Below, piece after piece: positions 457-19,486 of a stretch of DNA of 24,000 bases; positions within the stretch are counted from its first letter, which is position 1, and every line of letters begins with the position of its first letter. The stretch comes from Aetokthonos hydrillicola CCALA 1050. GTDB lineage: Bacteria; Cyanobacteriota; Cyanobacteriia; Cyanobacteriales; Nostocaceae. The notes below the pieces were generated by a model. It did no database searches and was not told where the DNA came from. It saw only the letters and a program-made list of their open reading frames with translations. The stretch covers positions 126,487 through 150,486 of the forward strand of contig NZ_JAAKGC010000002.1 in the NCBI RefSeq assembly GCF_017591665.1. Direction: 5' to 3'. The position numbers and the translations under genes were made by a program.

Positions 457-779
457 ATTGATTAAGTTAGAATAGAAATATATTCTAGAAGAAATTTAAT
501 TCCCAAACCCCAAGCGGAGAATATCATGAAAACATGAATGCTTATGCGCGAATGGGAGTTTTGTATTTTGTTATTTACAATCCTGATTTTTGGCGCAGAG
601 ATTCAGTCACTGCAAGTTGTAACAGCACATCCCACATTGGTGCCGAATATAAAGTATTGGCATCAAGAAGGGCGGAATCATGAGATGGCGATGCCAAAGG
701 CGGGCTACGCCTACGCTACCTGGGGACTTTCCACGCAAGGCAAGCCAGTGTACACATATTTCCGCAACTGGCGCTCATG

Positions 780-1170
780 TCGGGACATGATGCGATCGCG
801 TTCTGTGCTAAGCTATCTCAACGGACAGGTAAAACCTATCGTTTACCAAGTGAAGCAGAGTGGGAATATGCTTGTTGTGCTGGGATAACTACCCCGTTTT
901 ATTTTGGCGAGACGATTACTACTGATTTAGCGAATTATAACGGTGACTGTATTGGTCTATTTTTATTATTAAAAATTTACAATACTTATCCAAAAGGCGT
1001 TTACCGCCAGCAAACAACCGAAGTAGGAAAATTTCCACCAAATGCTTGCGGTTTATATGATATGCATGGTAATGTATGGGGACGTTGTTAAGATACCTGG
1101 TATTATAAATATCAAGGTGCGTCAGATGACAGCGGTGCATGGATGAACGATACTAATAATAATTATTAAT
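780..1170 (+). pseudogene. Decayed fragment of an FGE-sulfatase (SUMF1/EgtB/PvdO-type, C-type-lectin fold) domain gene; third paralogous copy
   Basis: Nucleotide-level similarity to about 10300-10661 and 3565-3920 (translated DAIAFCAKLSQRTGKTYRLPSEAEWEYAC...GVYRQQTTEVGKFPPNACGLYDMHGN). It lacks the N-terminal half and the C-terminal end. It carries a ~24-nt longer replacement around 949-990 and a premature TAA at 1089-1091 (WEWCQD became WGRC*). Confidence 0.8.
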
Positions 1171-2841: not shown

Positions 2842-3038
2842 TGAATTCTTCAGAGTTTAGCAATGCATAGCCACGGCTAATGTCTAATTCTTCCGTGACT
2901 TCAGCCAAGGAGGTTTGACGGAAGAATTCTGATAGTTTAGTTGGTTGATCTGAGTGGGTGTTTTTATTATGAAATGCTAATTCGATACTTTCCCTCTTAT
3001 CACGAAGAGCATCTGAAGGTAGTCCATTACGAGATCAC

Positions 3039-4061
3039 TTGTTGTTAAGCTTTATGACAGAACAGCCAAAACTCGCTGTTGAGGTGCTAGATAGTTTCGG
3101 TCATTTACTAGAAAACCAAAAAAGAAGCACTCCACAGACTAGAAAATTAACTCGCCGACAGTTTATCAAAGGGGTTGGTTTTGCTAGTGCAGGATTGCTA
3201 GGAGTAATAACGCTGCAGCGAGTGTTTCAGGAGAATCTGCAGCAGTTTGAATTTCAGGTAGTGAAGGTGGATGCAACAGGAAAAATTATCAAGAGCAACA
3301 CTAGTAGCGCAAATTTCTTTACTGAAGATTTGGGCAATGGTGTCACTTTGGATATGGTGGAAATTCCTGGGGGTAAGTTTGTTATGGGTTCCCCGTCAAC
3401 AGAAAAGGATAGATCTGATTCTGAACGTCCACAGCACAATGTTACAATTAAACCTTTTTATATAGGCAAGTTTACCATTACCCAACAGCAATATCAGGCA
3501 GTTATGGGGAAAAATCCCTCCAACTTCAAAGGAGAAAAACGACCTGTTGAACAAGTAAGCTGGGATGATGCGATCGCGTTCTGTGATAAACTATCTCAAA
3601 GGACAGGTAAAACCTATCGGCTACCAAGTGAAGCTGAGTGGGAATATGCTTGTCGTGCTCTTACAACTACCCCGTTTTATTTTGGTGAGACAATTACTAC
3701 GGATTTAGCGAATTATTACGGTAGCTCAACTTATGCATCTGAACCAAAAGGCGTTTACCGTCAGCAAACAACCGAAGTAGGAAAATTTCCACCAAACGCT
3801 TGGGGTTTATATGATATGCATGGTAATATATGGGAGTGGTGTCAAGATACCTGGCATGATAGCTATGAAGGTGCGCCGGTTGACGGCACTGCATGGGTGA
3901 GCGATGATAAAAATAATACACTACATCTGCTGCGGGGTGGTGCTTGGAACAACGTTCCGAGAATATGCCGAACAATAGATCGCGATTGGTTCGCGCGCGA
4001 CTACTCGGACAGCAATGTAGGTTTTCGCGTGGTTGCGGTTAGTGCAGCCAGGACTGTTTAG
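3039..4061 (+). CDS. Standalone FGE-sulfatase-domain protein with Tat-like signal/anchor; paralog of the C-terminal module of the 956-aa protein
   Basis: 340-aa ORF. RLPSEAEWEYACR, GLYDMHGNIWEWCQD and LLRGGAW...GFRVV are typical of PF03781/CLec-fold domains. TRRQFIKGVGFASAGLLGV fits the twin-arginine consensus (S/T-R-R-x-F-L-K plus a hydrophobic stretch). The start is either TTG 3039 or ATG 3054, and an in-frame TGA lies at 2970-2972. Confidence 0.8.
   Translation: MLLSFMTEQPKLAVEVLDSFGHLLENQKRSTPQTRKLTRRQFIKGVGFASAGLLGVITLQRVFQENLQQFEFQVVKVDATGKIIKSNTSSANFFTEDLGNGVTLDMVEIPGGKFVMGSPSTEKDRSDSERPQHNVTIKPFYIGKFTITQQQYQAVMGKNPSNFKGEKRPVEQVSWDDAIAFCDKLSQRTGKTYRLPSEAEWEYACRALTTTPFYFGETITTDLANYYGSSTYASEPKGVYRQQTTEVGKFPPNAWGLYDMHGNIWEWCQDTWHDSYEGAPVDGTAWVSDDKNNTLHLLRGGAWNNVPRICRTIDRDWFARDYSDSNVGFRVVAVSAARTV
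3927..4061 (+). other. VR-like hypervariable 3' end of the standalone paralog
   Basis: It corresponds to 10670-10804. In the 24 codons between W and GFR, 14 differ from the other copy, mostly in codon positions 1-2. This copy keeps more AAC/AAT codons (aac aac ... aat). Confidence 0.6.
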
Positions 4062-4184
4062 CACTTTATTAATTCTTCCAAGCGGCTAAACTTCTCTAGT
4101 AAACCTAACATTGTTACTGCTCCAACATTCCTTTAATTTTAACTATGAAGTGATGCACCTATCTTTCTGTTAGGTAAACTTGAC

Positions 4185-4547
4185 GCGATCGCTCCCAACA
4201 TAGATATTCGTGGTAAAATACAGCAAGCTGACCTCAAACGCTCAGCAAAAAGTCTCAATCCTGACGGATGGCGACGAGTTAACAACAGCCCGAATCCTTT
4301 TAAAAGCTTGCAGCGCTACTTGGGAGTAATACCGTTTCTTTATGAAGCTGCATTTATGAACCCCCCGGCTGCGCCGTCCCCCCTTACCAAGGGGGGACTA
4401 CAGGGGGGTAAAGTTATGTGCGTCTTCATATAAAATTGGGAGTAGCACCAGAGCAAGGGGAAAAAGCTGTTTCGGTGATTGGGTTTTGAAGAGAAACAGA
4501 CAGAAGATTGCGGAAAATTGTATGCTCAGCTTGTATTAAGGCTTGAA
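4185..4547. repeat. Left copy of a 198-bp direct repeat (4185-4299 + 4465-4547), interrupted by a 165-bp insertion
   Basis: gcgatcgctcccaacatagatattcgtggt.aaatacagcaagctgacctcaaacg... and ...agctgtttcggtgattgggttttgaa.agaaacagacagaagattgcggaaaa...cttgtattaaggcttgaa recur, near-identical, at 15983-16180. Confidence 0.9.
4329..4435. mobile_element. MITE-like palindromic element (copy A), possibly flanked by a 9-bp duplication TTGGGAGTA
   Basis: Imperfect terminal inverted repeats (tttatgaagctgcat / atgtgcgtcttcata) and a G/C palindromic core (ccccttaccaagggg). ttgggagta occurs at 4320-4328 and 4436-4444. The element is absent from the other copy of the 198-bp repeat. A related element lies at 5583-5688. 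Confidence 0.6.
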
Positions 4548-4570
4548 CGTTAGTAAATTTTCCTATCTTC

Positions 4571-5563
4571 ATGAAACCCGCGAAAAAAATATTAATGTTA
4601 TCAGCAAATCCTAAGAACACAAATCCTTTACGCTTAGGGGAAGAAGCACGGAAAATTCAAGAAGCGTTGAAACTAGCTAAACATCGAGATGAGTTTGAAA
4701 TTGCGACTTCTTGGGCAGTACGAGTAGAAGATTTACGCCGTGCAATGATAGACTATCAACCGAATATCATTCATTTTTCCGGACATGGAGTGGGAGCAGA
4801 GGGTTTGGCATTTGAAGATAATTCTGGGATGACGCAGTTGGTGAGCAGCGAGGCTATAGCAAGTTTATTTGAATTGTTTCGTGGAACAGTTGAGTGTGTC
4901 CTACTTAACGCCTGCTATAGCGAAGTTCAAGCACAAGCAATTCACCAGCACGTTGATCACGTAATTGGGATGAATCAGTCAATTGGGGACGTAGCTGGAA
5001 TTGAATTTACTATTGGCTTTTATGATGCTTTGGGTGCTGGAGAAAGCTATGACTATGCTTTTAGGATGGGGTGTAATGCTATTCAGCTAAAAGCTAGCCA
5101 GGAAAATTCAACACCAGTCATTAAATCTAGACCATCTTCTGTTTCTGTTAAAAAAGCTGTAAAATCCGATGTTATGTCTGAAAAAAAATCACAACAAAAA
5201 TCCAGTGAGGGAATTGTCTTTAACATTAGCGGTGCTAAAATAGGCGGTGGGATACAAGCTGTACAGGGTGATAACAATCTACAAAGCATGACTAACTATG
5301 CAGCTATTGAACAAAAGTTAAATCTTGCAGAAGTTGCAAAAGAAATTCAACAACTTTTGCAAAAAATAGAAAATTCAAATCCTGCCACAACGAGATTAGA
5401 AAAACTAATGATTGTTACTAAAGCTGTTGAACACATTGAAAATAATTCAGCCTTGAAAGCGCGTGTATTAGAATTAATCAACGCAGATAGAAAAGAAGCT
5501 TTAAAAAAAGAAATTAACCACCCGTTAGCAAAGATTGTACTAGAATCTATAGAAGATTTGTAA
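4571..5563 (+). CDS. Caspase/CHAT-like protease-fold protein (predicted effector) with a Ser/Lys-rich linker and helical C-terminus
   Basis: 330-aa ORF. The N-terminal ~170 aa carry the His...Cys arrangement of clan-CD peptidases: NIIHFSGHG (H68/H72), then ~40 residues later VLLNACYS (C115). This is the widespread cyanobacterial ILxLxANP...RL..E.R.I...L N-terminal module. It is the first gene of a co-directional cluster. Confidence 0.6.
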   Translation: MKPAKKILMLSANPKNTNPLRLGEEARKIQEALKLAKHRDEFEIATSWAVRVEDLRRAMIDYQPNIIHFSGHGVGAEGLAFEDNSGMTQLVSSEAIASLFELFRGTVECVLLNACYSEVQAQAIHQHVDHVIGMNQSIGDVAGIEFTIGFYDALGAGESYDYAFRMGCNAIQLKASQENSTPVIKSRPSSVSVKKAVKSDVMSEKKSQQKSSEGIVFNISGAKIGGGIQAVQGDNNLQSMTNYAAIEQKLNLAEVAKEIQQLLQKIENSNPATTRLEKLMIVTKAVEHIENNSALKARVLELINADRKEALKKEINHPLAKIVLESIEDL

Positions 5564-5582
5564 AAAATCAGTGTTTATACCA

Positions 5583-5688
5583 ATTTTCTGTGAAGCTGCA
5601 CATTATTTTTACCCCTCCTAACCTCCCCTTTCCAAGGGGAGGAAAGAAGGCGGTGGGTTTCTTTCTACACGTCTTCACATAAAAATGG
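5583..5688. mobile_element. MITE-like palindromic element (copy B), same family as 4329-4435
   Basis: ataccaattttctgtgaagctgcac...cccctttccaagggg...gtcttcacataaaaatggtat. The termini and core are similar to copy A. It lies in the intergenic space after the protease gene and could also act as a hairpin terminator. Confidence 0.55.
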
Positions 5689-5730
5689 TATTAAGTGATA
5701 ACTGCTAACTGTTGACGAGTGGTGCATTCT

Positions 5731-5758
5731 GACTCCTGACTCCTGACTCCTGACTCCT
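5731..5758. repeat. Heptamer tandem repeat (GACTCCT)x4
   Basis: Read directly from the sequence. The same heptamer forms the arms of the hairpin element at 11092-11310. It is an STRR-like cyanobacterial repeat class. Confidence 0.9.
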
Positions 5759-5820
5759 TTTTATACTATATCTCTCATCAATTATCTTGAGTTTCTAGTA
5801 TCTTTAACGCAAACTGATAA

Positions 5821-6960
5821 ATGAGTAACAATTTACCCCCTGAAGATAATTTACCACTCATTAAAGACTCAAATATTGAATTCCAGGCAAAAAATTCCAC
5901 AATTGATGGTGGAGTAAAAGTTATTCAGGGGAACGACAATATCCAGATTCACCAGGTTGTTGTTGGAAAGGTCACCTTTGAAAGTAGTATTCGGAAGCAT
6001 GTAAAACGACCTCGTTCTGAACAGGAACCTCCCTCTCTGCTGCCATATTTAGTAAATAGAAAAGAACAGGAAGAGGAGTTAGAAAACGCAGTTAAACTGT
6101 TGTTGAAACAAGTCCATCCTCGCCCTCTAGTTTGCATTATTCATGGTAGCGAATTTCAAGGTCATTATCAATTTTTAAAGCGGTTGCAAAAATCCTTTCT
6201 GCCAAGATTTTTAAAATTAGATCCAACCCAGAAGGTACAGGAATACTGTCTCGAGTGGCCGACTGGATTAAAAAATTTAGATCTACTGAAGGATCGGTTA
6301 TGCAAAAATCTAGTAACCAAAGTTCTAGGTCATGATTTTGATTGTCCGGAAGAAATTAATGCTACTTTAAAAGAAATAAATGCAAGCTTCTGCAAATACC
6401 CTAGTCCAATTGTCATTGATACTCATATACGTACTCAAGACTGGCAGCAGCAAGGATTTGAAATATTAAATAAACTGTTGGAGTTTTGGGACAATTGGCC
6501 TGATCTTATTCCAGGACAGAGACTCATAGTCTGTGTATTTATTAAATACACTATCTATCTGCACAAACATACTGAAGAATTTTCGTTTCCACGGATTTTC
6601 AATTGCTTGCCCAGTTTGTACAAGCGGCATTACTATCAAAGTATAAATAAAAAGATTTCAAAAGTACTTAATAAATCAAAAAATAAACATTTTAATCGCT
6701 TATCGTATACTATCTTGTCAGAATTGAAAAATATTAACATAATGCATGTTGAACACTGGGTACGCGATAAAGAAACGAAACAGTTTGTTGGTGAGGAGAA
6801 GACTCAGAAACTGATTAATGACGTAACACTTATGTTTAATCATTGGGGAAAGGACACAATTCCTATGGATGATTTAGCTGATGAGTTAACTCGCCTACTA
6901 AAGTCACTAAAAGTTACTAATTATACTCATGATAAGAAAAAGCCTAATAGGAGCAAATAG
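5821..6960 (+). CDS. Hypothetical protein; possible inactive STAND-like / vWA-MoxR-associated adaptor
   Basis: 379-aa ORF. LPYLVNRKEQEEELENAV...RPLVCIIHGSEFQGHYQFLKRL sits where a STAND NTPase would have its Walker A, but no GxxxxGK[ST] is present. It ends 2 nt before the AAA+ gene, with an AGGAG 10 nt upstream of that start. The family assignment is inference only. Confidence 0.35.
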   Translation: MSNNLPPEDNLPLIKDSNIEFQAKNSTIDGGVKVIQGNDNIQIHQVVVGKVTFESSIRKHVKRPRSEQEPPSLLPYLVNRKEQEEELENAVKLLLKQVHPRPLVCIIHGSEFQGHYQFLKRLQKSFLPRFLKLDPTQKVQEYCLEWPTGLKNLDLLKDRLCKNLVTKVLGHDFDCPEEINATLKEINASFCKYPSPIVIDTHIRTQDWQQQGFEILNKLLEFWDNWPDLIPGQRLIVCVFIKYTIYLHKHTEEFSFPRIFNCLPSLYKRHYYQSINKKISKVLNKSKNKHFNRLSYTILSELKNINIMHVEHWVRDKETKQFVGEEKTQKLINDVTLMFNHWGKDTIPMDDLADELTRLLKSLKVTNYTHDKKKPNRSK

Positions 6961-6962
6961 AT

Positions 6963-7949
6963 ATGAAATTTCCATTCTACAGAGGTGATGGAACTCGACA
7001 GCAGTATGAATCGCCAGCAAAACTACCTATCTCTAGGCGTTCTCTACTACTGAAGCCAGAATATTACATTGCTGATCTAGGACTTAAAGATGCTTGTAAT
7101 GTAGCCCTCTTATTGGGACAACCCCTTCTGCTTACGGGAGAACCCGGAACTGGAAAGACTCAATTTGCCTACAGTCTTGCATGGGAACTTGGTTTCGATC
7201 CACCATTAAAGTTTGAAACTAAGTCTACTAGTACCGCTCGGGATCTTTTCTATACCTATGATGCATTGAAACGTTTCCAAGATGCCCAAAGCGGTGTTTT
7301 ATCAAGCCCCTTGGATTATATCACCTACCAAGCTCTGGGGCTGGCGATTTTACTAACCCGAGATCCGGCTGAGGTTGAGCAAATCTTACCATCAAATTTC
7401 GCACATCCTGGCAAAGTACGCTCTGTTATTTTAATTGATGAAATTGATAAAGCTCCTCGTGACTTCCCAAATGATCTGCTCAATGAACTGGAACACATGT
7501 ATTTTCGTATTCCAGAGTTAGGAAATAAAATAATTGAAACTGATCCAGCACTCCAACCCATTGTAATTATTACCAGCAATACTGAAAAGGATTTGCCAGA
7601 TGCCTTTCTACGGCGTTGCATTTATTATGATATTCCCTTCCCAGAGCATGAGAGACTTGCAGAAATTATTGCCAACCGCCTTGGACTTTATAATGGTAGC
7701 AGCAATCCATTTTTACAAGATGCTCTTGACTTATTTTATCAATTACGTTCCCCTCAAAGTGGTTTAAGGAAAAAACCTGCAACAGCTGAACTATTAGGTT
7801 GGCTCTTGGCTCTAAAAACCGTTGCTGGTGATACACCTAATCCCTTAGATAAATTAGATCTGGTTCAAGCTACCCTCAGTAGCTTAGTCAAAACTTCCGA
7901 AGATCAAGAAAAAGCTAGACAACTTGTAAAGCAATGGATGCTGCAATAG
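6963..7949 (+). CDS. MoxR-like AAA+ ATPase (AAA_5-type)
   Basis: 328-aa ORF with Walker A LLLTGEPGTGKT, Walker B VILIDEIDKA and sensor region IVIITSNTEKDLPDAFLRRC. It overlaps the downstream gene by 16 nt. Confidence 0.8.
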   Translation: MKFPFYRGDGTRQQYESPAKLPISRRSLLLKPEYYIADLGLKDACNVALLLGQPLLLTGEPGTGKTQFAYSLAWELGFDPPLKFETKSTSTARDLFYTYDALKRFQDAQSGVLSSPLDYITYQALGLAILLTRDPAEVEQILPSNFAHPGKVRSVILIDEIDKAPRDFPNDLLNELEHMYFRIPELGNKIIETDPALQPIVIITSNTEKDLPDAFLRRCIYYDIPFPEHERLAEIIANRLGLYNGSSNPFLQDALDLFYQLRSPQSGLRKKPATAELLGWLLALKTVAGDTPNPLDKLDLVQATLSSLVKTSEDQEKARQLVKQWMLQ

Positions 7950-10804
7950 AAATAAATATCCCTGACTGGTTAAATCGCAATGTTCTAACCGATTTTATTG
8001 ATGAACTCAGAGATGCAGGCTATAACATTGGCATTGCTCAGTATATTGCAGCTTATGATTTAATCTTAGCACTAACGGCTCAGGGTGAACCCTTGAATAA
8101 ACCAGAGCGTCTCAAAACTCTGCTTGGACCAATCTTTTGTAGTTCACCAGCTGAGCAGGAAGATTTTCAGCAACGCTTTGACCGTTGGGTTGAGTTGGTT
8201 TGTCAAACTGGTCGCGCAACGGAGGGAGCAGATGTAAAAGCTCAAGCATTATCAGAAGAATTAGGAAAGATCGAAAGGCGTTTGCCTCAGTTAAATAGAA
8301 GACTTATTCTAATTGCTCTAACAGGAATCATTCTACCCTTGTTCTTGGAACAGTCTATAAAAGATGAGAGTACTAGGCCAAAACAACCTTCTGCGAAACA
8401 ACCTTCCGCAAAACAACCTTCTACAACACAACCTTCTACAACACAACCTTCTACAACACAACCTTCTACAACACAACCTTCTACAACATTTGTAACGCCA
8501 CGCAATCGAGACTTTCCACAGGATTGGCAGATATATTTGTTCTCTTTTTTGCTTACTTCTGGTATTATTTTTATAGTGTGGCGTTTATGGTGGTTATGGC
8601 GTGCTCGCCTGTTCTTACAGCGTCATGGAACTACGAAACAGCCTGAGCTATATAAGATTGCTTTCCGTGAATTTGAGCAAAACTTATTCCCTACAATTAT
8701 ATTGATACATGCTGCTCAGAGTTTAAGGTATCGAATCCGTATCCCATCCGATGAACTTGATATTGATAAAACCATTGATGCAACTTTTCGCCAAGGAGGA
8801 TGGCTGACACCAGTATACGGTATTCGTCAAGTTCTTCCCGAGTATCTGTTTCTTATTGATCGTGCTAGCTACTCTGATCATCAGGCTAAATTTATAGAAG
8901 AGATGGTTGAGCGCCTTAAACACAATGGAGTTTTTATCACAAGCTATTTCTTTGATGATGATCCGCGAATTTGCTTTCCTAGTGATGGTATAAGCTCTCC
9001 ACAGAAACTTAACGAAATAGCAGCAAAATTTGCTCAACATCGCCTTGTTATCGTCTCAGATATAGAGAAGCTATTTAGTTCTCAAACTGGTGAGCTAGAA
9101 TCTTGGGTGAGTCAAATGACAAGCTGGGAGCATAGAGCTATTTTAACCCCAAAACCTTTCGAAAGTTGGGGATATCAAGAGTTAGAACTCGCACGCCAGT
9201 TTATTGTTTTACCCGCAACTCCTCAAGGGGTGCGATCGCTTAGCCAAGTTTTACATCACGGATCTGCAACCTACGTTCTCTCTGAAAAAGACCAAAATCC
9301 TCTACCGGAAACGTTGCGTACTCAACCCCATTACTGGATTGAGCGCAACCCGCCAAAACCTGAGCAGATCAATACAATGTTAAACTCATTGCAGGAATAT
9401 CTCGGCGAAGACGGTTTTTACTGGCTCAGCGCTTGTGCTGTTTTTCCGGAGTTACATTGGAACATTACAATCTATCTGGGTAATGCTCTCAAAACAGAGG
9501 ACAGTCAAAGTCTTTTGGAGGTTTGTTCACTAACTAATCTGGCTCGCTTACCCTGGTTTCGTTATGGTTACATACCAGATTGGTTGCGTTCTCGTCTCAT
9601 TGCAACCCTTACATACGAACAGAAGCATACAATCCGCACTGCACTTCAAGATTTACTCATCACTGCTGTTCAGGGATCTGTAGGTAGACAGCAATTAGAA
9701 GTTGCACAAAAGCATCACAGTTTTCTACCTAAACTTGCTAATTCGATACTTTCCCTGTTATCTAGAAGAGCGACTGAAGGTAGTCCATTACGAGACTACT
9801 TGTTTTTAAGCTTTATGACGGGACAGCCAAAACTCGCTGTTGAGGTGCTAGATACTTTCAGTCATTTACTACAAAAGCCACAAAGAATCACTCGGCGACA
9901 GTTTATCAAATGGGCTGGTTTTGTTAGTGCAGGATTCGTAGGAGCAATAGCGCTGCAGCAACTGTTTCAGGAGAATCTGCAGCAGTTTGAATTTCCGGTA
10001 GTGAAGGTGGATGCAACAGGAAAAATTACCAACCGCACGAATAAACAAGCAAATTTCTTTACTGAAGATTTGGGTAATGGTGTGACTTTAGATATGGTAG
10101 AAATTCCTGGGGGTAAGTTTGTTATGGGTTCCCCGTCAACAGAAAAGGATAGATCTGATTCTGAAGGTCCACAGCACAATGTGACGATTAAACGTTTTTT
10201 CATGGGCAAGTTTACCATTACCCAGCAGCAATATCAGGCAGTTATGGGGAAAAATCCCTCGAACTTCAAAGGAGAAAAACGACCTGTTGAAGGAGTAAGT
10301 TGGGATGATGCGATCGCTTTCTGTGCTAAACTATCTCAAAGGACAGGTAAAACCTATCGGCTACCAAGTGAAGCTGAGTGGGAATATGCTTGTCGTGGTT
10401 GGACTACTACGCCGTTTTATTTTGGTGAGACGATTACAACGGATTTAGCAAATTATAACGGTGACTATACTTATGCATCTGAACCAAAAGGCGTTTACCG
10501 TCAGCAAACAACCGAAGTAGGAAAATTTCCACCAAACGCTTGCGGTTTATATGATATGCATGGTAATATATGGGAGTGGTGTCAAGATACCTGGCATGAT
10601 AACTACCAAGGTGCGCCAGATGACGGCACTGCATGGGTGAGCGATAATAATGTTAATAATTCTCGACGTCTGCTGCGTGGCGGTTCGTGGGTCAACGATC
10701 CGAGGTTCTGTCGTTCGGCGTTTCGCGTCAGGCTCGCGCGCGCCTTCTCGAACGACCTTGTGGGTTTTCGCGTGGTCGTGGTTGGTGCAGCCAGGACTCA
10801 TTAG
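7934..10804 (+). CDS. Membrane protein: CoxE-like N-domain, TM hairpin with PST repeat, vWA-like domain (degenerate MIDAS), Tat-like anchor, FGE-sulfatase/CLec domain carrying a DGR variable region
   Basis: 956-aa ORF. The N-terminus FIDELRDAGYNIG...EDFQQRFDRWV and the middle ELDIDKTIDATFRQGG...EYLFLIDRASYSD...VFITSYFFDDD are collinear with CoxE-type vWA proteins (PF05762) as I remember them. Hydrophobic segments are LILIALTGIILPLFL, IYLFSFLLTSGIIFIVWRLWWLW and WAGFVSAGFVGAIAL (the last preceded by TRRQFIK). The C-terminus has RLPSEAEWEYACR, GLYDMHGNIWEWCQD and LLRGGSW...GFRVV. Confidence 0.75.
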   Translation: MDAAIEINIPDWLNRNVLTDFIDELRDAGYNIGIAQYIAAYDLILALTAQGEPLNKPERLKTLLGPIFCSSPAEQEDFQQRFDRWVELVCQTGRATEGADVKAQALSEELGKIERRLPQLNRRLILIALTGIILPLFLEQSIKDESTRPKQPSAKQPSAKQPSTTQPSTTQPSTTQPSTTQPSTTFVTPRNRDFPQDWQIYLFSFLLTSGIIFIVWRLWWLWRARLFLQRHGTTKQPELYKIAFREFEQNLFPTIILIHAAQSLRYRIRIPSDELDIDKTIDATFRQGGWLTPVYGIRQVLPEYLFLIDRASYSDHQAKFIEEMVERLKHNGVFITSYFFDDDPRICFPSDGISSPQKLNEIAAKFAQHRLVIVSDIEKLFSSQTGELESWVSQMTSWEHRAILTPKPFESWGYQELELARQFIVLPATPQGVRSLSQVLHHGSATYVLSEKDQNPLPETLRTQPHYWIERNPPKPEQINTMLNSLQEYLGEDGFYWLSACAVFPELHWNITIYLGNALKTEDSQSLLEVCSLTNLARLPWFRYGYIPDWLRSRLIATLTYEQKHTIRTALQDLLITAVQGSVGRQQLEVAQKHHSFLPKLANSILSLLSRRATEGSPLRDYLFLSFMTGQPKLAVEVLDTFSHLLQKPQRITRRQFIKWAGFVSAGFVGAIALQQLFQENLQQFEFPVVKVDATGKITNRTNKQANFFTEDLGNGVTLDMVEIPGGKFVMGSPSTEKDRSDSEGPQHNVTIKRFFMGKFTITQQQYQAVMGKNPSNFKGEKRPVEGVSWDDAIAFCAKLSQRTGKTYRLPSEAEWEYACRGWTTTPFYFGETITTDLANYNGDYTYASEPKGVYRQQTTEVGKFPPNACGLYDMHGNIWEWCQDTWHDNYQGAPDDGTAWVSDNNVNNSRRLLRGGSWVNDPRFCRSAFRVRLARAFSNDLVGFRVVVVGAARTH
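8381..8485 (+). repeat. In-frame 15-nt tandem repeat, 7 units, encoding (KQPSA)2-KQPST-(TQPST)4
   Basis: Units aaacaaccttctgcg / aaacaaccttccgca / aaacaaccttctaca / acacaaccttctaca x4, read directly. It lies between the first two hydrophobic segments of the 956-aa protein. Confidence 0.95.
10670..10804 (+). other. DGR variable region (VR) at the 3' end of the 956-aa gene
   Basis: Its 5' 18 nt (ctgctgcgtggcggttcg) are repeated exactly at 12427-12444 just after the RT gene. The segment is the only strongly divergent part between two otherwise ~85-90% identical paralogs. It occupies the canonical LLRGGSW...GFRV position of CLec-fold DGR targets, and avd and RT are immediately downstream. Confidence 0.7.
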
Positions 10805-10855
10805 CCCTTTACTCTCTTGCACTTTTGCACTCTACCCTCTATTATTTACCTTTAC

Positions 10856-10882
10856 TCCGCCGCAGGCGGATCGATTTTTTTT
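10856..10882 (+). terminator. Hairpin plus T-run downstream of VR (intrinsic terminator; possibly also the DGR target-site hairpin)
   Basis: tccgcc-gca-ggcgga (6-bp GC-rich stem, 3-nt loop) at 10856-10870, followed by tcga and tttttttt (10875-10882). Confidence 0.6.
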
Positions 10883-10894
10883 GAGTTTTTTAAG

Positions 10895-11091
10895 ATGAGC
10901 GATTTGCCTATTATACAGAAAACCTACGATTTGATCAAGTGGTATGTCCCAATTTTAAACCGCGTGCCGAGAGAACATAAATTTTTATTGGCAAACCGGA
11001 TGATTACAGGACTGTACGATATTCGGGATGCTCTGATCGTAGCACGGTATTCCACCAAAGACAAGTTAGCTCAGTTAGAATCTTTGAAGAA
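10895..11091 (+). pseudogene. avd: DGR accessory variability determinant (Avd), 3'-truncated
   Basis: MSDLPIIQKTYDLIKWYVPILNRVPREHKFLLANRMITGLYDIRDALIVARYSTKDKLAQLESL matches the N-terminal half of cyanobacterial Avd proteins as I recall them. From 11092 the frame runs into a GAATTCAGGAGTCA-repeat hairpin element and ends at 11173. No second half of avd follows before the RT start. ATG 10895 is preferred over the listed 10817 start, which lies upstream of the terminator. Confidence 0.6.
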
Positions 11092-11310
11092 GAATTCAGG
11101 AGTCAGAATTCAGGAGTCAGAACAAGAGCGTAAGGGATTCGATTCAAACCTGCCACTAATTGCAGACCGCTAAATCTTCTCCTATCGGAGACGCTACGCG
11201 TAGCTTGCTTCCCCAAAGGGGTACGATTTAGCCGGGGTCTTAAGCCCCTTAACTCATCTGCCAGTCGTACAGAATTCATGCGCTCATTCTGACTCCTGAT
11301 TCCTGAGTTC
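11092..11310. mobile_element. ORF-less hairpin element with inverted heptamer-repeat arms, replacing the 3' half of avd
   Basis: The left arm is (gaattcaggagtca)x2 at 11092-11119. The right arm ttctgactcctgattcctgagttc at 11287-11310 is its imperfect reverse complement. The interior contains further palindromes (gctaaatc...gatttagc). Confidence 0.55.
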
Positions 11311-11329
11311 TATTTAATAAGACAACAGC

Positions 11330-12391
11330 ATGAAACGACATGGTAATCTGTGGAAGGACGTTATCGCGTTTGAGAATTTACTAACAGCTAGCCGGAAAGC
11401 ACAACGGGGCAAACGTTTTCGAGACAATGTTCTGTCGTTCAATTACAATCTAGAGAAAGAGCTATTTCAACTACAAGCAGAATTACAGTCAAAAACATAC
11501 AATCCCGGTTTATATACAACATTTCGGATTTTTGAACCAAAGCCACGTCTGATTTCTGCTGCTCCTTATCGCGATAGAGTAGTACATCACGCTCTTTGCA
11601 ACATTATTGCTCCTATTTTTGAAAGAACATTCATTCATGATTCCTACGCTAACCGCGTTGGTTTTGGCAGTCACCGCGCGTTACGTCGTTTTACAAGCTT
11701 TGCGCGCTCAAGTCGCTACATTCTGCAATGCGATATTCGCAAATATTTTCCCAGCATCGACCATGAAATTTTAAGGTCACTGGTACGCCGTAAAATCAAA
11801 TGCCGTGATACACTCTGGCTAATCGACAATATTATTGATGCAAGTAACCCTCAAGAACCAGTTATCGATTACTTCCCTGGTGATGATTTACTTATGCCTT
11901 TGGAACGACGAAGAGGCTTGCCAATTGGTAATTTAACCAGCCAATTCTTTGCGAATGTATACCTTAACAGTTTAGATCATTTTGTTAAAGAACAAATCAA
12001 AGCGACCAAATATGTTCGCTACGTTGATGATTTTGCTTTGTTTTCAGATGACCGAGAATTTTTAGAAAACGCAAGACGAGAAATCGAAGAACACCTTGCT
12101 AGTCTGAGGCTCAAGCTTCATCCTGTTAAGAGCCAATTATTTCAGACAAAACACGGTGCCAATTTTGTTGGTTTTCGCATCTTACCAAATCGGATTCGAG
12201 TAAGGAACGATAATCTGCGTCTCGCAAGGCGAAGATTACGAAAGATGGTTTTAGACTATAGAGAGGGCAAAATTACCCAACAGGAAGTATCTCAGTCAAT
12301 TCGGAGTTGGATTGGTCACTTAAAACATGGAGATACTTGGCGATTGCGCCAGGAAATATTTAGTTCTCTCGTGTTTTCAAAAAAACCCTAA
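11330..12391 (+). CDS. DGR-type reverse transcriptase
   Basis: 353-aa intact ORF beginning MKRHGNLW. It has the RT motifs [26 protein letters not shown] (the [I/L]GxxxSQ motif typical of DGR RTs) and the catalytic [11 protein letters not shown]. Confidence 0.85.
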
Positions 12392-12426
12392 TATGTTATC
12401 CTCAACTGTGGGGTAGGCAATACCGA

Positions 12427-12444
12427 CTGCTGCGTGGCGGTTCG
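12427..12444 (+). other. 5' stub of the DGR template repeat (TR)
   Basis: An 18-nt exact match to the start of VR (10670-10687), located 36 nt after the RT stop. The match stops at the edge of the inserted cassette (12445). A tgg that would continue the match follows the cassette at 12881-12883. Confidence 0.55.
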
Positions 12445-12880
12445 AATTCAGTTATCAGTTATCAGTTATCAGTTATCAGTCGATTATGAATAGTTTAGTT
12501 TATGAGAAAGCGTATAAATTTGCCATTCGCATTGTAAACGCATACAAATATCTTTCTGAAGAGAAGAAAGAATATATTTTATCAAAGCAATTAATTAGAA
12601 GCGGAACCTCAATTGGAGCTAATATCGCTGAAGCTAATGGAGCAATATCTCAAGCAGATTTTTGCTGCAAAATTTCTATTGCTTATAAAGAATGCTTGGA
12701 AACGAAATATTGGCTTTCTTTGTTAAAAGATACAGCATACATTGAGCAGAAAGCATTTGATAGCATTTATGAAGATGCAGATGAAATAGGAAAAATTCTA
12801 TTTTCAATCCTTAAAAAAACAAAAATTAAACAACAATCAATAGAATGATAACTGATAACTGATAACTGATAACTGATAAG
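12445..12880. mobile_element. IVS-like cassette: four-helix-bundle gene flanked by inverted heptamer arrays, inserted in the TR
   Basis: (cagttat)x4 at 12449-12476 and (gataact)x4 at 12847-12874 are reverse complements of each other. The interior is visibly more AT-rich than the flanks. Like the element in avd, it starts with gaattcag. Confidence 0.65.
12486..12848 (+). CDS. Four helix bundle protein (23S rRNA intervening-sequence protein / Avd superfamily)
   Basis: 120-aa ORF. LIRSGTSIGANIAEANGAISQADFCCKISIAYKECLETKYWLSLL is the hallmark of the TIGR02436/PF05635 family. Confidence 0.8.
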   Translation: MNSLVYEKAYKFAIRIVNAYKYLSEEKKEYILSKQLIRSGTSIGANIAEANGAISQADFCCKISIAYKECLETKYWLSLLKDTAYIEQKAFDSIYEDADEIGKILFSILKKTKIKQQSIE

Positions 12881-12976
12881 TGGGGTTGGAAACAATCTTC
12901 GAAAATAAAACTGAGTCGGATAGCTTAGTAGGCTGCAAAGTCGAACGGTTTGTCTGACTTATTGAAGTTTATAGGT

Positions 12977-13124
12977 CAATATGGTTCAGTTAAAGCCTAA
13001 AGTTGTGTAGTTGTGTAGTTGTGTAGGTTGGGCTGAGGGACGAAGACCAACATTTTTAGAATTTCGTTGGGCAACACGAGCGTTCAACCCAACCTACCAC
13101 TAAGCCTTAACTGAACCGTATTGG
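12977..13124. mobile_element. MITE-like nested palindromic element, including an (agttgtgt)x3 octamer repeat
   Basis: Outer inverted repeats caatatggttcagttaaagcctaaag (12977-13002) and ctaagccttaactgaaccgtattg (13100-13123). Inner inverted repeats gtaggttgggctgagg / gttcaacccaacctac. Confidence 0.6.
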
Positions 13125-13218
13125 GTTATAGATCTGCAATCAGTCAACCAAAAAGTTTTTCTCCAAAGAGCAATGCCTGCGGCGGGCTGCGCCTACGCTA
13201 ATTTGTTTGTAGCCTATG

Positions 13219-16252: not shown

Positions 16253-18829
16253 CTAATCTAAACTTTGTAAGCCGATCGCTATCTTACTATGTTTCTCAAT
16301 TTGACCCATGACTTGTTTTGCTCGTTGAATCACTACCGCAGGTAAACCGGCTAAACGTCCTGCTTCAATTCCATAGGATTTATCAGCACCACCTGGTTGA
16401 ACGGAGTGCAAAAAGATAATCTGGTCTGGTAACTCTTTCACTGTTACTTGATAGTTAGCGACATTTGGTAAAATTGACGCTAACTCATTCAACTCATGGT
16501 AGTGCGTTGCAAAAATTGTTCGCGCCCGAATTTCTGTTGCAATATACTCTGCTACAGCCCAAGCAATTGAAAGTCCATCAAATGTTGCTGTTCCGCGCCC
16601 AATTTCATCTAATAACACCAAGGATCTTGAAGTTGCATGGTTGAGAATATTTGCTGTCTCATTCATCTCCACCATAAATGTTGATTGACCAGTCGCCAAG
16701 TCATCCACTGCACCGACACGAGTGAAAATGCGATCGCACACCCCCAACTTAGCAGACTTAGCAGGCACAAAACTACCAATCTGTGCCATCAACTGAATCA
16801 ATCCCACCTGTCTTAAATAACAACTCTTACCACTTGCATTAGGTCCAGTCAAGATAATTAAATCAGGTGATACCTCATATAAGTTCTCCTCTACCAACCC
16901 TAGCTGAGTAGAATTTGGCACAAAAAACCCTGCTGGTAAAGACTTTTCTACTACCGGATGACGCCCATCGACTATCCTAATTTCTCGTCCTGGTATCATT
17001 TCCGGACGACAGTAACCTTGATAAACCGCCAATTCTGCCAAACCAGCCAACACGTCAGCCGCAGCAACTGCACGAGAAATATTGCGAATGCTCTCCGCGT
17101 GTTTTCCTACCTCTTCGCGCAACACTGCAAAAATTTCATACTCCAACTTATTTAAATCATCCCGCGCTGTGAGAATTCGGGCTTCTCTTTCCTTCAATTC
17201 AGGTGTGATGTAGCGCTCCTCGTTGGTCAATGTTTGCTTGCGGATGTAATTAGAAGGTACAGAATCAGCTTTTGCACGAGAAATACTGATATAATACCCG
17301 AAGGTTTTGTTAAACCCTACTTTTAAATTGGGTATTGCCGTCCTTGCTCTCTCATCAACTTCTAAATTAGCAATCCACTGTTGATCTTCTTCTACAGTAA
17401 CGCGCCTCTGATCTAACTGAGGATTAATTCCAGGGCGAATCAAACCACCTTCTGTTAAATGTATTGGTGGTGACTCCACAATATGAGCTTGTAATTTTTG
17501 TGCTAAATCTTGCAGCAGAGGTGGTGCTTTTTGTAGAGCCTTTAAAAACGGAGACTCAGCCTCACTGACTAAGTGAGATAATTCTGGTAGACGAGATAAC
17601 GAATCCGCCAATGCGACTAAATCTTTTGCATTAGCAGTACCAGAACCAGCACGTCCCGCCAAGCGTTCCAAGTCATAAATTTGCTTTAACAGTTTCCGCA
17701 ATTCTTGGCGGAGGTTAGTGTTTTCTACGAGTTCTTGGATCGTGTCTTGTCGAGCGCTAATACCTTTTATATCAAGTAGAGGTTGCAATAACCAGCGCCG
17801 TAAAGCGCGACTCCCCATTGTTGTACAGGTGTTATCTAACGCCCAAAGCAGAGAACCATGAAAACTACCATCACGAACTGTTTGGGTAATTTCTAAGTTA
17901 CGGCGGGTTTGATGATCAACAATTAAGAAGTCACTGAGGGTGTAGGTGCGGAGTAGTTGTAGAGGAACGGTGTTTTCTTTTTGTGTATCTTCTATGTATT
18001 CTAAAAGCCCACCAGCAGCGCGAACTGCTAACGGTAGGTGATCGCAACCGAGCCCTTCAAGCGATCGCACTTTAAACGTTTGCAATAATCTTGCTCTTGC
18101 TTCACCTGCGCTGAACCGATTTTGCGATCTTAAAGAATAACAGAACGATGGTGGTAAACAATCTGGTAAATGTTCTGATTTTTCACCCGGACGTAGTAAA
18201 GTTCCCAAATCAGGAGCATTGGTAGGAACCAGTACCTCTGAAGGTTGCAACCGCATTAATTCTTGGGTGAGATGTTCTAAAGGAGTTCCTTGAGTTGTGA
18301 GAAATTCACCAGTAGAGATATCTGCATAAGCTAAACCCCAATGATCTCCCGCAATAACCACAGCAGCTAGATAGTTATTATGACTCCCCTTGAGCATTCC
18401 TTCTTCTAGCAAAGTACCAGGAGTGAGGATGCGGGTTACTTCACGTCGCACCAAACCAACAGCGTCAGCAGCGTCTTCCACTTGATCGCAAATCACCACT
18501 GCATAGCCTTTTTCTACCAACTGGGTAGTATAACGCTCCCATGCATGATGTGGTACACCTGTCATGCATACCCTACCGACTTCTCCCCCGTGTTTACTTG
18601 TTAAAACTAATTCCAGTTCTCTGGAGATAGTAACCGCGTCTTGAAAAAAAGTTTCAAAAAAATCTCCTACCCGATACAGCAGCAGTGCGTGAGGATACTT
18701 ATCCTTCATTTCCACGTAGTGCTGATACATTTTACTGAGCCTACTGCGATCCACTAGTCGATGATCAGCATGAGGTGCAGTCGAGTTATTAGGTTCGTTT
18801 GTTTGGGACGCAGAGTCAGAAGCCGTCAT
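16253..18829 (-). CDS. mutS: DNA mismatch repair protein MutS
   Basis: 858-aa ORF with the N-terminal mismatch-binding region [14 protein letters not shown], Walker [15 protein letters not shown], Walker [10 protein letters not shown], and THYHEL. Confidence 0.95.
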
Positions 18830-18880: not shown

Positions 18881-19486
18881 TTATTTCATGGAAGTGTCAA
18901 TTATTTGTACGAGTGTTCTAAAAAGTCGGTCACAGTGAAGTGACGCTTTGCGGACTTGATCAGCATTCAAGCTTGCCAAAAGCAGTGAAGCATGTTTTAT
19001 TTTGTGATACTCACCTTTAGAAGTGTTACAAGTAGCAGCTTTCAGTTTTTTGTTTAAAATATCTTTATCAAGACTCTCCACATCTTGACTTCTCTTAATT
19101 GCATTTTCTTTGAACCCTTGACCATAAAACTTTCTAAGAGTTTCAATGTCAGCAATAAACCATGCTTCCATAACTTGAACCATTAAGTGACAATGAATAT
19201 CATCAACATCTGGTAAATCCCAATTATCCCTCGACTTTAAATGCTCCCAAGGAGACAATTTAACTGGAGCTTCAGCATCTACAAGCAACAAGTTAAAGGC
19301 ATCTTGGTGAGATTTTAAAGCATTTTTAAAGTCCCGAAAAGCGTCATTACGCTTACCGCACATAGTAATGTTTATTCGTCGCTCGCGTGATACTTGTAGA
19401 AATTTATGAAATCCTTCCCGAAGTTTAGCTTTTGACTCTTTACCATCACCACCACCTTCAATATAAATACGGATCTCCTTTACCAT
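18881..19486 (-). CDS. DUF4276-family protein (Toprim-like predicted nuclease partner of the upstream ATPase)
   Basis: 201-aa ORF. IRIYIEGGGDGK..., LLVDAE and MEAWFIAD are the conserved acidic motifs of DUF4276 as I recall them. Its start overlaps the ATPase stop by 7 nt. Confidence 0.6.
   Translation of the reverse strand: MVKEIRIYIEGGGDGKESKAKLREGFHKFLQVSRERRINITMCGKRNDAFRDFKNALKSHQDAFNLLLVDAEAPVKLSPWEHLKSRDNWDLPDVDDIHCHLMVQVMEAWFIADIETLRKFYGQGFKENAIKRSQDVESLDKDILNKKLKAATCNTSKGEYHKIKHASLLLASLNADQVRKASLHCDRLFRTLVQIIDTSMK

Follow-up and report, generated by a model that had tools for sequence, protein, structure and literature searches.

A probable iSTAND-type MoxR–vWA ternary conflict system with a caspase-like protease and a decayed diversity-generating retroelement in Aetokthonos hydrillicola

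The iSTAND ternary systems were defined by comparative genomics (Kaur, Burroughs, Iyer and Aravind 2020, eLife, PMC7159879). In the sister VMAP/MoxR systems, described from Thiohalocapsa PB-PSB1 and cyanobacterial clade 5E, C-type-lectin (CLec) 'antigen sensors' are diversified by a diversity-generating retroelement (DGR), and a model leading from sensor to MoxR/vWA to protease has already been proposed for them (Doré et al. 2024, PNAS, PMC10907252). Among relatives of the ternary systems, our literature search turned up experimental work only on Esr, a MoxR–vWA beta-propeller threat-sensing pathway of oral Actinobacteria for which a defensive response was shown (bioRxiv 2026 preprint, 10.64898/2026.09.08.750141). 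Here we describe a locus in a window of 24,000 nt from Aetokthonos hydrillicola CCALA 1050 (contig NZ_JAAKGC010000002.1; all positions below are window coordinates), in which four adjoining genes encode a caspase-like protease, an inactive STAND (iSTAND) protein, a MoxR-type ATPase, and a 956-aa membrane protein ending in a lectin-fold domain. The host is a filamentous, true-branching cyanobacterium. The locus is very probably an iSTAND-type MoxR–vWA 'ternary' conflict system, composed of a CoxE-like vWA/vWA-L protein with a DGR-diversified lectin domain, its MoxR partner, an inactive STAND scaffold, and a CHAT protease coupled to that scaffold by a shared motif.

All four open reading frames (ORFs) lie on the plus strand and are tightly packed, with the coordinates and junctions given in the original prediction, an earlier annotation of this DNA made from its letters alone. 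In order, they encode the CHAT/caspase-fold cysteine protease (4571–5563, 330 aa), the iSTAND protein (5821–6960, 379 aa), which is the system-specific third component, the MoxR-type AAA+ ATPase (6963–7949, 328 aa), and the membrane protein that ends in an FGE/CLec domain (7934–10804, 956 aa). A spacer of 257 nt separates the CHAT and iSTAND genes, the gap between the iSTAND and MoxR genes is 2 nt, and the MoxR gene overlaps the 956-aa gene by 16 nt. A scan of positions 4000–13000 for terminator-like hairpins found none that was convincing between the four ORFs, the best one (10856–10880) lying past the last stop codon. The peptides quoted in the prediction were also recovered from the ORFs: IIHFSGHG and VLLNACYS in the CHAT protein, RPLVCIIHGSEFQGHYQF in the iSTAND protein, and DRASYS in the 956-aa protein. 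The CHAT–iSTAND spacer contains a tandem heptamer repeat, (CTGACTC)x4.3, at 5729–5758.

Gene-set conservation was assessed on 78 loci from species-representative genomes, fetched via the most conserved peptides of the large-protein family; 66 of them had at least 2.3 kb of upstream sequence and were treated as informative. The MoxR gene is located directly upstream of the large-protein gene in 64 of the 66 and the iSTAND gene upstream in 62, while 61 loci have both, upstream of the large gene and on the same strand. Given this conservation of the neighborhood, chance adjacency of the four genes was ruled out. The hosts are mostly filamentous cyanobacteria and also include Beggiatoa-like Gammaproteobacteria, Chloroflexota, Bacteroidota, Acidobacteriota, and others. 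Unlike the iSTAND–MoxR–large-protein core, the protease gene varies between loci. Relatives encode caspase C14 (10 loci), CHAT (5), TIR (2), trypsin, and other effectors just upstream of the iSTAND gene, or carry an effector fused to the iSTAND N-terminus: DUF4062 (10), C14 (4), CHAT (3), TIR (2), and trypsin (2). Variation of this kind is what Kaur et al. (PMC7159879) reported for the iSTAND ternary systems.

The window locus has the three core genes of the iSTAND ternary systems of Kaur et al. (PMC7159879), in unchanged order, and further agrees with them in a CoxE-type four-helix N-domain and transmembrane (TM) segments of the large protein, FGS/FGE as the commonest C-terminal module, a caspase-like peptidase tied to the iSTAND N-terminus by a duplicated adaptor, a multicellular cyanobacterial host, and coupling to a DGR. 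The defining features of these systems were all found where tested, save the vWA fold, which we grade only as probable, and the placement among the vWA–MoxR 'ternary' conflict systems made in the original prediction can be narrowed to the iSTAND subtype. Three differences set the window locus apart: the coupling element is a short disordered Q/N/G-rich motif rather than a named globular EAD, the CHAT protein has an additional C-terminal helical bundle, and the DGR is decayed.

The 330-aa protein was recognized as CHAT by both Pfam (E 2.5e-10) and PADLOC ('chat', 1e-17). Its presumed dyad, H72 and C115, shows no variation across 40 aligned homologues that reach down to 42% identity. In the AlphaFold2 (AF2) model (mean predicted local distance difference test score, pLDDT, 74.6), a confident alpha/beta protease domain (residues 1–186) and a confident helical bundle (residues 250–330) are joined by a disordered linker (residues 190–249, pLDDT <50) that holds the motif shared with the iSTAND protein. 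A Foldseek search of the PDB returned the activated SAVED-CHAT protease 8tl0 as the top match (E 5e-12, 27% identity), followed by caspase-9, caspase-11, the CHAT anti-sigma factor DdvA, separase, and MALT1. From sequence and model, the protein is classified as a clan CD caspase-like (CHAT) protease with a caspase-hemoglobinase fold and a His/Cys dyad, its activity being predicted; the caspase-like fold on which the original prediction had staked its assignment was thereby found. SAVED-CHAT protease is activated by oligomerization on a sensor scaffold. The window protein has the same His/Cys dyad, but the system has no SAVED or cyclic-oligonucleotide sensor, and CHAT would presumably be activated by recruitment to iSTAND.

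The C-terminal helical bundle of the CHAT protein (5320–5560, residues 250–330; IENNxxLKxRVxxALKxxGxEAxKExxNHP) is conserved in many cyanobacterial CHAT proteins of ~330 aa, with up to 2330 matches overall, and occurs detached in one related locus (L017). It has no match in Pfam.

The 379-aa protein matches the Pfam iSTAND family PF19995 above the cut-off (E 3.2e-22, residues 75–241). In an alignment of 58 family members from related loci, the Walker A position is occupied by a conserved IIHGDExQ(C/S)HD, and no acidic residue is conserved at the Walker B site; the lack of catalytic motifs is therefore a property of the whole family, in keeping with its Pfam name, 'inactive STAND'. The suggestion that this P-loop-less STAND protein is probably a non-catalytic adaptor gains support from the family-wide replacement and from a sequence motif that it has in common with the CHAT protein. 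This Q/N/G-rich motif of ~24 residues, with the pattern I.F......I.GG....QG(D/N)(D/N)N.Q, lies at residues 215–238 of CHAT (5213–5284, plus strand, IVFNISGAKIGGGIQAVQGDNNLQ) and at residues 19–42 of iSTAND, close to the N-terminus (5875–5946, plus strand, IEFQAKNSTIDGGVKVIQGNDNIQ). The local alignment of the two copies scores 55, a value reached by 3 of 2000 shuffles, and in the six-frame translation of the whole window the string QG[DN][DNE]N is confined to these two sites.

A similar relationship was found in related loci with a short iSTAND N-extension, about 29 of 32 of which share a segment between the partner and iSTAND (z 6 to 32). The shared segments fall into several unrelated classes, among them alpha-helical domains (one of them Pfam EAD9) and several short Q/N/G-rich motifs. 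When iSTAND N-termini were compared with 33 candidate upstream ORFs, the cognate partner ranked within the top three for 19 of them; for the window N-terminus, the best partners were the CHAT of locus L001 and its own CHAT. The window motif matched no named Pfam EAD. Judged by these alignments, the coupling element follows the 'EAD coupling principle' of Kaur et al. (PMC7159879), though it is not a named EAD, and coupling of an effector to the iSTAND N-terminus by a duplicated adaptor was found here in this form. Two observations speak against such coupling: the motif match in the window is modest on its own, given the shuffling result above, and the motif is internal in CHAT, where a 90-residue helical tail follows it.

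Other arrangements were seen at related loci. Short ORFs of ~147 aa located just upstream of iSTAND (L003, L012, L013, L020, L029, L037, L070) encode an N-terminal hydrophobic helix and a helical body and end in NQGQxIGQMxGG, a motif that recurs at the N-terminus of the adjoining iSTAND; this layout recalls the pairs of Bell domains and bacterial amyloid signaling sequences (BASS), with the difference that the partner is an inactive STAND. The layout is reversed in the partners of L005, L014, and L015, which begin with a (VQGDNN)n motif and have their TM helix at the C-terminus.

In filamentous bacteria, BASS motifs pair Bell-domain effectors with NLR-type STAND proteins, and CHAT is among the BASS-linked effectors (Dyrka et al. 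2020). The window motif resembles BASS in composition (rich in G, N, Q, I, and V), length, and adjacency, and as in NLR-amyloid signaling (fungal HET-s/PP, BASS) a G/N/Q/V/I-rich stretch of ~25 aa occurs once in an effector and again at the N-terminus of the adjoining STAND protein. However, the window partner, an inactive STAND, has neither NACHT/NB-ARC nor repeats, and the motif belongs to none of BASS1–10 and is located inside CHAT, not at its C-terminus. A search of the literature and of the BASS supplementary pair tables did not find the core strings, and the class examples differ. Membership in BASS1–10 was rejected on the absence of the core strings from the tables, the iSTAND nature of the partner, and the internal position of the motif in CHAT. 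We consider it a speculative and rather unlikely idea that iSTAND ternary systems couple a dead STAND scaffold to caspase-like and small Bell-like membrane effectors via short amyloid-templating Q/N/G-rich motifs, in addition to globular EADs, with MoxR/vWA gating their exposure or nucleation; the sole pointer to fibril-type behavior is the location of the motif in a segment that AF2 leaves disordered. If true, such coupling would merge two separate paradigms, NLR-amyloid signaling and the MoxR–vWA ternary systems, and would give an AAA+ unfoldase direct control over a signaling amyloid in bacteria.

The 328-aa protein is identified by its sequence as a MoxR-type AAA+ ATPase, as had been proposed. 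It matches Pfam AAA_5 and AAA (E 7e-10), its Walker A (GEPGTGKT) and Walker B (ILIDEID) motifs are intact, and among solved sequences it is closest to midasin AAA modules and CbbQ/NorQ. CoxD–CoxE, NorQ–NorD, and RavA–ViaA are MoxR AAA+/vWA chaperone pairs that insert metals or cofactors into enzymes and have an intact DxSxS metal-ion-dependent adhesion site (MIDAS). As in these pairs, the MoxR gene of the window lies immediately upstream of the gene for its partner. The partner shares homology with CoxE in its N-terminal domain, and its alpha/beta domain is collinear with the CoxE vWA. By contrast, the window protein appears to have a deleted MIDAS loop, has added TM segments and a sensor/linker extension of 500 residues, and is accompanied by a dead STAND protein and a protease.

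The domain order of the 956-aa protein is a CoxE-type N-domain, a TM segment, a Pro/Ser/Thr-rich (PST) loop, a second TM segment, a vWA-like domain, the helical vWA-L, a Tat-like segment, and an FGE/CLec domain with a variable region (VR). The AF2 model of residues 1–720 (mean pLDDT 68.8) consists of four N-terminal helices (residues 15–90), a long helix running into a hydrophobic segment, the disordered PST loop, a second hydrophobic helix, an alpha/beta domain, and further helices. The four-helix N-terminal domain (7976–8197, plus strand, residues 15–88) is, from sequence comparison, homologous to the CoxE N-domain. A tblastn search with residues 1–105 against 72,556 plasmids identified CoxE of pHCG3 from Afipia (Oligotropha) carboxidovorans (E 2e-3, 38.6% identity), whose gene lies immediately downstream of the MoxR ATPase gene coxD; pairwise BLASTP of the N-domain against CoxE gave E 2e-8, and hhalign of the family profile against a profile of eight CoxE sequences gave 86% probability (E 5e-6) over residues 15–88. 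Escherichia coli YehP had been tried as the CoxE-type reference in this profile–profile comparison without a match and was replaced by authentic plasmid-borne CoxE proteins; lacking the CoxE N-domain, YehP is a poor reference.

The identity of the alpha/beta domain that follows the TM segments (8681–9268, plus strand, residues 250–445) is less clear-cut. It is modeled with confidence, and its elements follow the vWA order (bA-a1-bB/bC hairpin-a-bD-a-bE-a-bF-a). Foldseek matched it to the VWA chains of NorD, 9qhe_G and 9qh6_G (probability 0.98–0.99, E 3e-3), and the alignment of the family with the CoxE vWA has common landmarks: LDxxxTI..GG, the beta1 strand, 'SDG', and 'WLNP' vs 'LTPKP'. Several results weigh against a vWA domain. 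PRTases score level with NorD in the same Foldseek search, and no Pfam, NCBIfam, or PADLOC model recognized a vWA in the 956-aa protein, in 40 close and 35 distant homologues, or in eight proteins from other phyla. Pfam VWA_CoxE was faintly visible in five of the 40 members (best E 0.046), in a segment just before and including the first beta-strand. hhalign found the domain collinear with the CoxE vWA over 148 columns, at a probability of 6.9%. The canonical DxSxS...T...D MIDAS is absent from the family consensus and from the profile alignment, which makes the usual vWA chemistry of ligand capture inapplicable. A profile search of the PDB with the 956-aa protein matched the FGE part alone.

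On the model, we nevertheless regard a vWA fold as likely, the domain being interpreted as a CoxE-derived vWA that lost its metal site. The original prediction of a CoxE-type vWA partner is thus borne out for the N-terminal domain, while the vWA itself, seen by no HMM (hidden Markov model) library, is supported by weaker evidence. The related claim that DRASYS is a degraded DxSxS MIDAS is probably wrong. In the profile alignment, the MIDAS loop of CoxE (DVSGSMT; the gap stands opposite SGSMT) faces a 5-residue gap in the family, which is better described as a deletion in the loop. The family consensus at this position is LIDRxSYxDHQ, with R310, D315, and Q317 invariant and D309 replaced by N or E in some members.

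Downstream lies a helical linker domain (9308–9823, plus strand, residues 459–630), whose helices are predicted by AF2 and which has the invariant motifs WLSACAVFPELHWNITIYLG and LPWFRYGYxPDWLR. In the work that defined the class, the large protein is termed the vWA component; the name 'vWA-L' for the helical domain is from Kaur et al. 2021 (PMC8195603). A public Aetokthonos record of the large protein, P0041 (metagenome-assembled genome CCALA 1050), has 562 aa and starts near residue 395 of the 956-aa ORF; its annotation thus includes neither the N-domain nor the TM segments and misses most of the vWA-like domain.

A Kyte–Doolittle (KD) scan of the 956-aa protein revealed two strong TM segments (residues 124–142 and 200–221; 8303–8596, plus strand), which flank the PST loop (residues 143–195, pLDDT <50). 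In this loop, TRF detected a 15-nt tandem repeat (x 7.3, 8379–8488, 93% matches) encoding (K/T)QPS(A/T) units; the repeat is a candidate for length change by slippage, and the disordered loop varies in length among homologues. A third hydrophobic stretch (residues 651–676; 9884–9961, plus strand, RITRRQFIKWAGFVSAGFVGAIALQQ) is Tat-signal-like and starts with RITRRQFIK, which has the twin-arginine consensus. Pfam TAT_signal reaches only E 0.13 on this segment, and the equivalent segment in a 340-aa paralog encoded in the window passes NCBIfam TIGR01409 (17.6 bits against a cut-off of 16.7). The protein ends, as had been proposed, in an FGE-sulfatase/C-type-lectin-fold domain (10091–10777, plus strand, residues 720–948; Pfam PF03781, E 2.8e-57).

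The simplest topology would place the N-domain, vWA, and vWA-L in the cytoplasm, together with MoxR, and the PST loop and lectin domain outside. A point against this placement is that the third segment is weakly hydrophobic and falls below the KD cut-off of 1.6, on account of which the lectin domain could be cytoplasmic. The extracytoplasmic ligand binder described in the original prediction is therefore plausible in its location, from the two TM segments and the Tat-like RRQFIK segment, and the direction of the signal is one that we infer.

The 3′ end of the 956-aa gene contains a variable region, VR1 (10667–10797, plus strand), which aligns to the template repeats (TRs) of related DGR loci and lies within the last ~45 codons of the FGE-fold gene, as in a DGR target. 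Set against the consensus of related TRs, VR1 departs from it at 20 of 27 adenine columns and at 12 of 78 other columns. A second FGE/VR target, located at 2975–4061 (plus strand), partly duplicates the 3′ third of the 956-aa gene. Its ORF (3039–4061) encodes the intact, stand-alone 340-aa paralog, which combines a Tat signal and an FGE domain (Pfam, NCBIfam) and includes VR2 at about 3924–4054. The two copies are direct repeats with 80–90% identity, and the homology begins upstream of the start codon of the smaller ORF, which marks it as a segmental duplicate. Differences between VR1 and VR2 are enriched at TR-adenine columns (15/27 vs 20/93, p = 0.0014). By this signature, the lectin pocket is one written in the past by DGR adenine mutagenesis.

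These features invite comparison with the systems of Doré et al. (PMC10907252), in which the target is likewise a vWA–CLec fusion, encoded beside a peptidase effector and a MoxR ATPase, and a further short target consists of CLec only. A route from sensor to MoxR to effector has been proposed for them, and their predicted localization varies and includes the periplasm. They differ from the window locus in having VMAP where the latter has iSTAND.

We hypothesize that the lectin domain, placed outside the cytoplasmic membrane by the two TM segments and the Tat-like third segment, would bind a non-self ligand with a specificity written by adenine mutagenesis. Ligand binding would alter the cytoplasmic vWA/vWA-L/N-domain module, which a MoxR hexamer would remodel with ATP, as in the CoxD–CoxE and NorQ–NorD pairs. 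Remodeling may then release or assemble iSTAND oligomers, and the shared motif, through a homotypic and possibly beta-templated contact, would recruit and concentrate CHAT. Activated by proximity, CHAT would cut cellular targets, leading to arrest or death of the affected filament cell. Every step of this mechanism is inferred, and as a mechanism it is tentative; taken as a whole, with the identity of the system included, it is the explanation that we favor with moderate confidence. Effector swapping at the iSTAND end (caspase/CHAT, TIR, trypsin, DUF4062), whether by fusion or as a motif-matched neighbor, was counted in its favor. Against it stands the outcome of our literature search, which found no experimental work, i.e., expression, interaction, or phenotype data, on any iSTAND system.

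The direction of the signal can be weighed on the C-terminal modules of relatives. Residues 1–700 define a family with 173 word-indexed matches and, in an exhaustive search, about 3300 representatives at E <= 1e-3. After the constant vWA/vWA-L core its members have a hypervariable C-terminal module: FGE, WD40, TPR, pentapeptide, cyanovirin-N (CVNH), CHASE2, periplasmic binding-protein folds, or PEGA, and further lysozyme, amidase, VanY, SLT, or trypsin. CHASE2, the periplasmic binding-protein folds, and the CVNH lectin fit a sensing role for this position. The peptidoglycan hydrolases of other relatives look like effectors, not sensors, and the authors who defined the class give sensing to iSTAND (PMC7159879); both points count against the sensor-to-protease model. 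In their published interpretation (Kaur et al. 2020/2021, PMC7159879, PMC8195603), transferred to the window locus, the cytoplasmic iSTAND would sense an invader-derived signal, e.g., nucleic acid, MoxR–vWA would license CHAT as a signaling protease whose cut in the large protein falls within or close to vWA-L, and the freed or activated FGS/lectin module would be a diversified effector that binds and neutralizes an invader component.

Such a reversed flow is in line with the clear effectors at the C-terminus of relatives (lysozyme, amidase, VanY, SLT, trypsin), although sensor folds (CHASE2, periplasmic binding-protein) occupy the same position and nothing about a ligand-binding lectin fold with a DGR-written pocket points to killing activity. 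It also agrees with the presence of caspase, TIR, and trypsin on the iSTAND side, the position held by the 'signaling' domains of VMAPs, but the iSTAND protein has neither nucleotide-binding motifs nor a recognizable sensor repeat, and the probable position of the lectin domain outside the membrane would separate it from the cytoplasmic protease. As the C-terminal repertoire of relatives comprises both classic sensors and classic effectors, the data do not choose between the two models; we rate the reversed flow as somewhat unlikely.

The sensor-to-protease model also has to be weighed against a regulatory or developmental pathway, in which the locus would serve envelope or neighbor surveillance, kin recognition, or programmed cell death in the course of differentiation rather than a response to invaders, with the lectin as a receptor for an environmental or self ligand. 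The effectors of relatives (caspase, CHAT, TIR, trypsin, and small Bell-like membrane proteins) form a death or immunity repertoire and argue against this, even though the Esr pathway of Actinobacteria, also a MoxR–vWA pathway, signals to transcription and secretion, not suicide (10.64898/2026.09.08.750141). For cyanobacterial DGR targets, regulatory tuning was proposed by Vallota-Eastman et al., according to the account in PMC10907252; yet a receptor for a self ligand would need no 20+ randomized positions, and hypervariation with module swapping is typical of arms races. In keeping with a regulatory role, the neighbors of the locus are housekeeping genes (mutS, OYE reductase, MscS-like channel) and no mobile-element hallmarks were found around the four genes. 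Overall, we consider a regulatory function quite unlikely.

Esr resembles the proposed pathway in that a variable surface-exposed sensing domain signals via a conserved MoxR–vWA pair to a defensive output. It differs in having a beta-propeller sensor on a separate filamentous protein and a kinase/phosphatase/FHA relay to Esx secretion, with no iSTAND, protease, or DGR. In view of the Esr preprint (10.64898/2026.09.08.750141), the earlier statement that no such system has been characterized needs qualifying; it agrees with our literature search for the iSTAND subtype.

The DGR adjacent to the lectin gene was analyzed by comparison with seven DGR-linked relatives, which have the same target–avd–reverse transcriptase (RT) order and in which a TR of 125–140 nt starts 25–30 nt past the RT stop. 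Their TR/VR mismatches number 13–23 and fall almost entirely at TR adenines. In the window, the RT gene (11330–12391, plus strand, 353 aa; Pfam RVT_1, E 2.5e-23) is full length, encodes IGNLTSQ and YVDD, is 67–75% identical to the RTs of these relatives, and appears intact. The avd gene (10895–11173, plus strand) is truncated: the first ~63 residues are Avd-like, and NF033474 aligns over profile positions 1–60 of 104 with 65.5 bits, below the 80-bit cut-off. Its C-terminal half is replaced in comparison with the seven relatives, and the break is caused by an element bounded by an imperfect inverted repeat (11091–11129 / 11280–11311) on a 14-nt tandem unit (AGAATTCAGGAGTC x 2.3).

A BLAST search and two adenine-tolerant scans for a full TR, run on both strands of the whole window, returned a stub of 21 nt (12424–12444, plus strand) alone, and thus no TR/VR pair. 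The stub starts at the position equivalent to the TR start in the seven relatives. A cassette (12445–12885, plus strand) sits inside the TR, 21 nt past the TR start, and is absent from all 78 related loci. It contains a gene for a four-helix-bundle/23S-rRNA-IVP protein (12486–12848, 120 aa; PF05635 1.5e-31, TIGR02436 8e-33), which is a distant Avd relative (bAvd E 7e-4), and its ends are 32-nt inverted arrays of the heptamer CAGTTAT/ATAACTG with 97% complementarity. The cassette resembles an rRNA-type intervening sequence inserted in the TR. A degenerate 20-nt continuation of the TR past the cassette (12886–12906) was considered and rejected as not significant, its score being reached by 29–63 of 500 shuffles.

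With the TR and avd broken, the neighboring DGR would at present be unable to retarget the VR in cis. A functional DGR unit was not found in the window, and by its sequence the receptor specificity is frozen unless another DGR acts in trans; ongoing hypermutation at the window locus is unlikely given the broken TR. The view that the adjacent DGR targets the lectin domain accordingly stands for the past, on the adenine signature of the VRs, and fails for the present, with avd truncated and the TR reduced to 21 nt. Between the VR-bearing gene and avd, 52 nt past the stop codon of the former, lies a GC-rich hairpin, TCCGCC-GCA-GGCGGA, followed by a T-run (10856–10880, plus strand). From its sequence, this may be either a terminator or the type of DNA hairpin found next to VRs in some DGRs; nothing comparable was seen after VR2.

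The decay of the DGR raises the question of whether the whole locus is a relic, the four genes being perhaps no longer functional or expressed. Apart from the truncated avd, the 21-nt TR, and the small repeat elements and cassette inserted here, the duplicated target fragments nearby are suggestive in this respect, one FGE copy being already a pseudogene, and the public record P0041 starts only at residue ~395 of the large protein. However, the four ORFs are full length with catalytic and family-invariant residues intact, and the junctions with the 2-nt gap and the 16-nt overlap are kept as in relatives. Moreover, 71 of the 78 related loci have no RT match within the fetched flanks, which indicates that the system does not depend on a DGR. 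A relic in decay is thus very unlikely.

The pseudogene is a decayed third FGE copy (777–1167, plus strand; repeat families D1 and D2) with overlapping ORFs 538–888 and 777–1091, a broken frame, and no VR end. An MscS-like channel gene (1174–2841) lies between it and the second copy. In the intergenic DNA beyond the cassette, a short (AGTTGTGT)x3.2 tandem repeat (13001–13026) and hairpin-forming inverted repeats (12970–13130) were observed; such small repeat elements are typical of heterocystous cyanobacteria. Beside mutS (16253–18829), two overlapping genes on the minus strand (18881–20661), one for an AAA_21/AbiEii-like ATPase of 393 aa and the other for a DUF4276 protein of 201 aa, may be a separate small defense-type module. 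Scans of the window with Rfam (gathering thresholds) and for tRNAs gave no matches.

Together, our results add little as discovery, since the class has been described since 2020, its coupling to DGRs has been published as well, and the sensor-to-protease logic was put forward by Doré et al. (PMC10907252). The new points are modest: the motif-level coupling of CHAT to iSTAND and the decayed DGR. The locus is a compact and clean example of a predicted immune-like pathway in multicellular bacteria, with separate genes for protease, scaffold, ATPase, and receptor, in a host that is a cultivable toxic cyanobacterium. With the diversifier broken, the receptor sequence is fixed, which makes the system convenient for biochemistry: the single lectin pocket, the protease dyad, and the 24-residue coupling motif are each defined. 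Such a locus could be used to decide which is the sensing end and which the killing end of such systems, and whether the motif works by amyloid-like templating.

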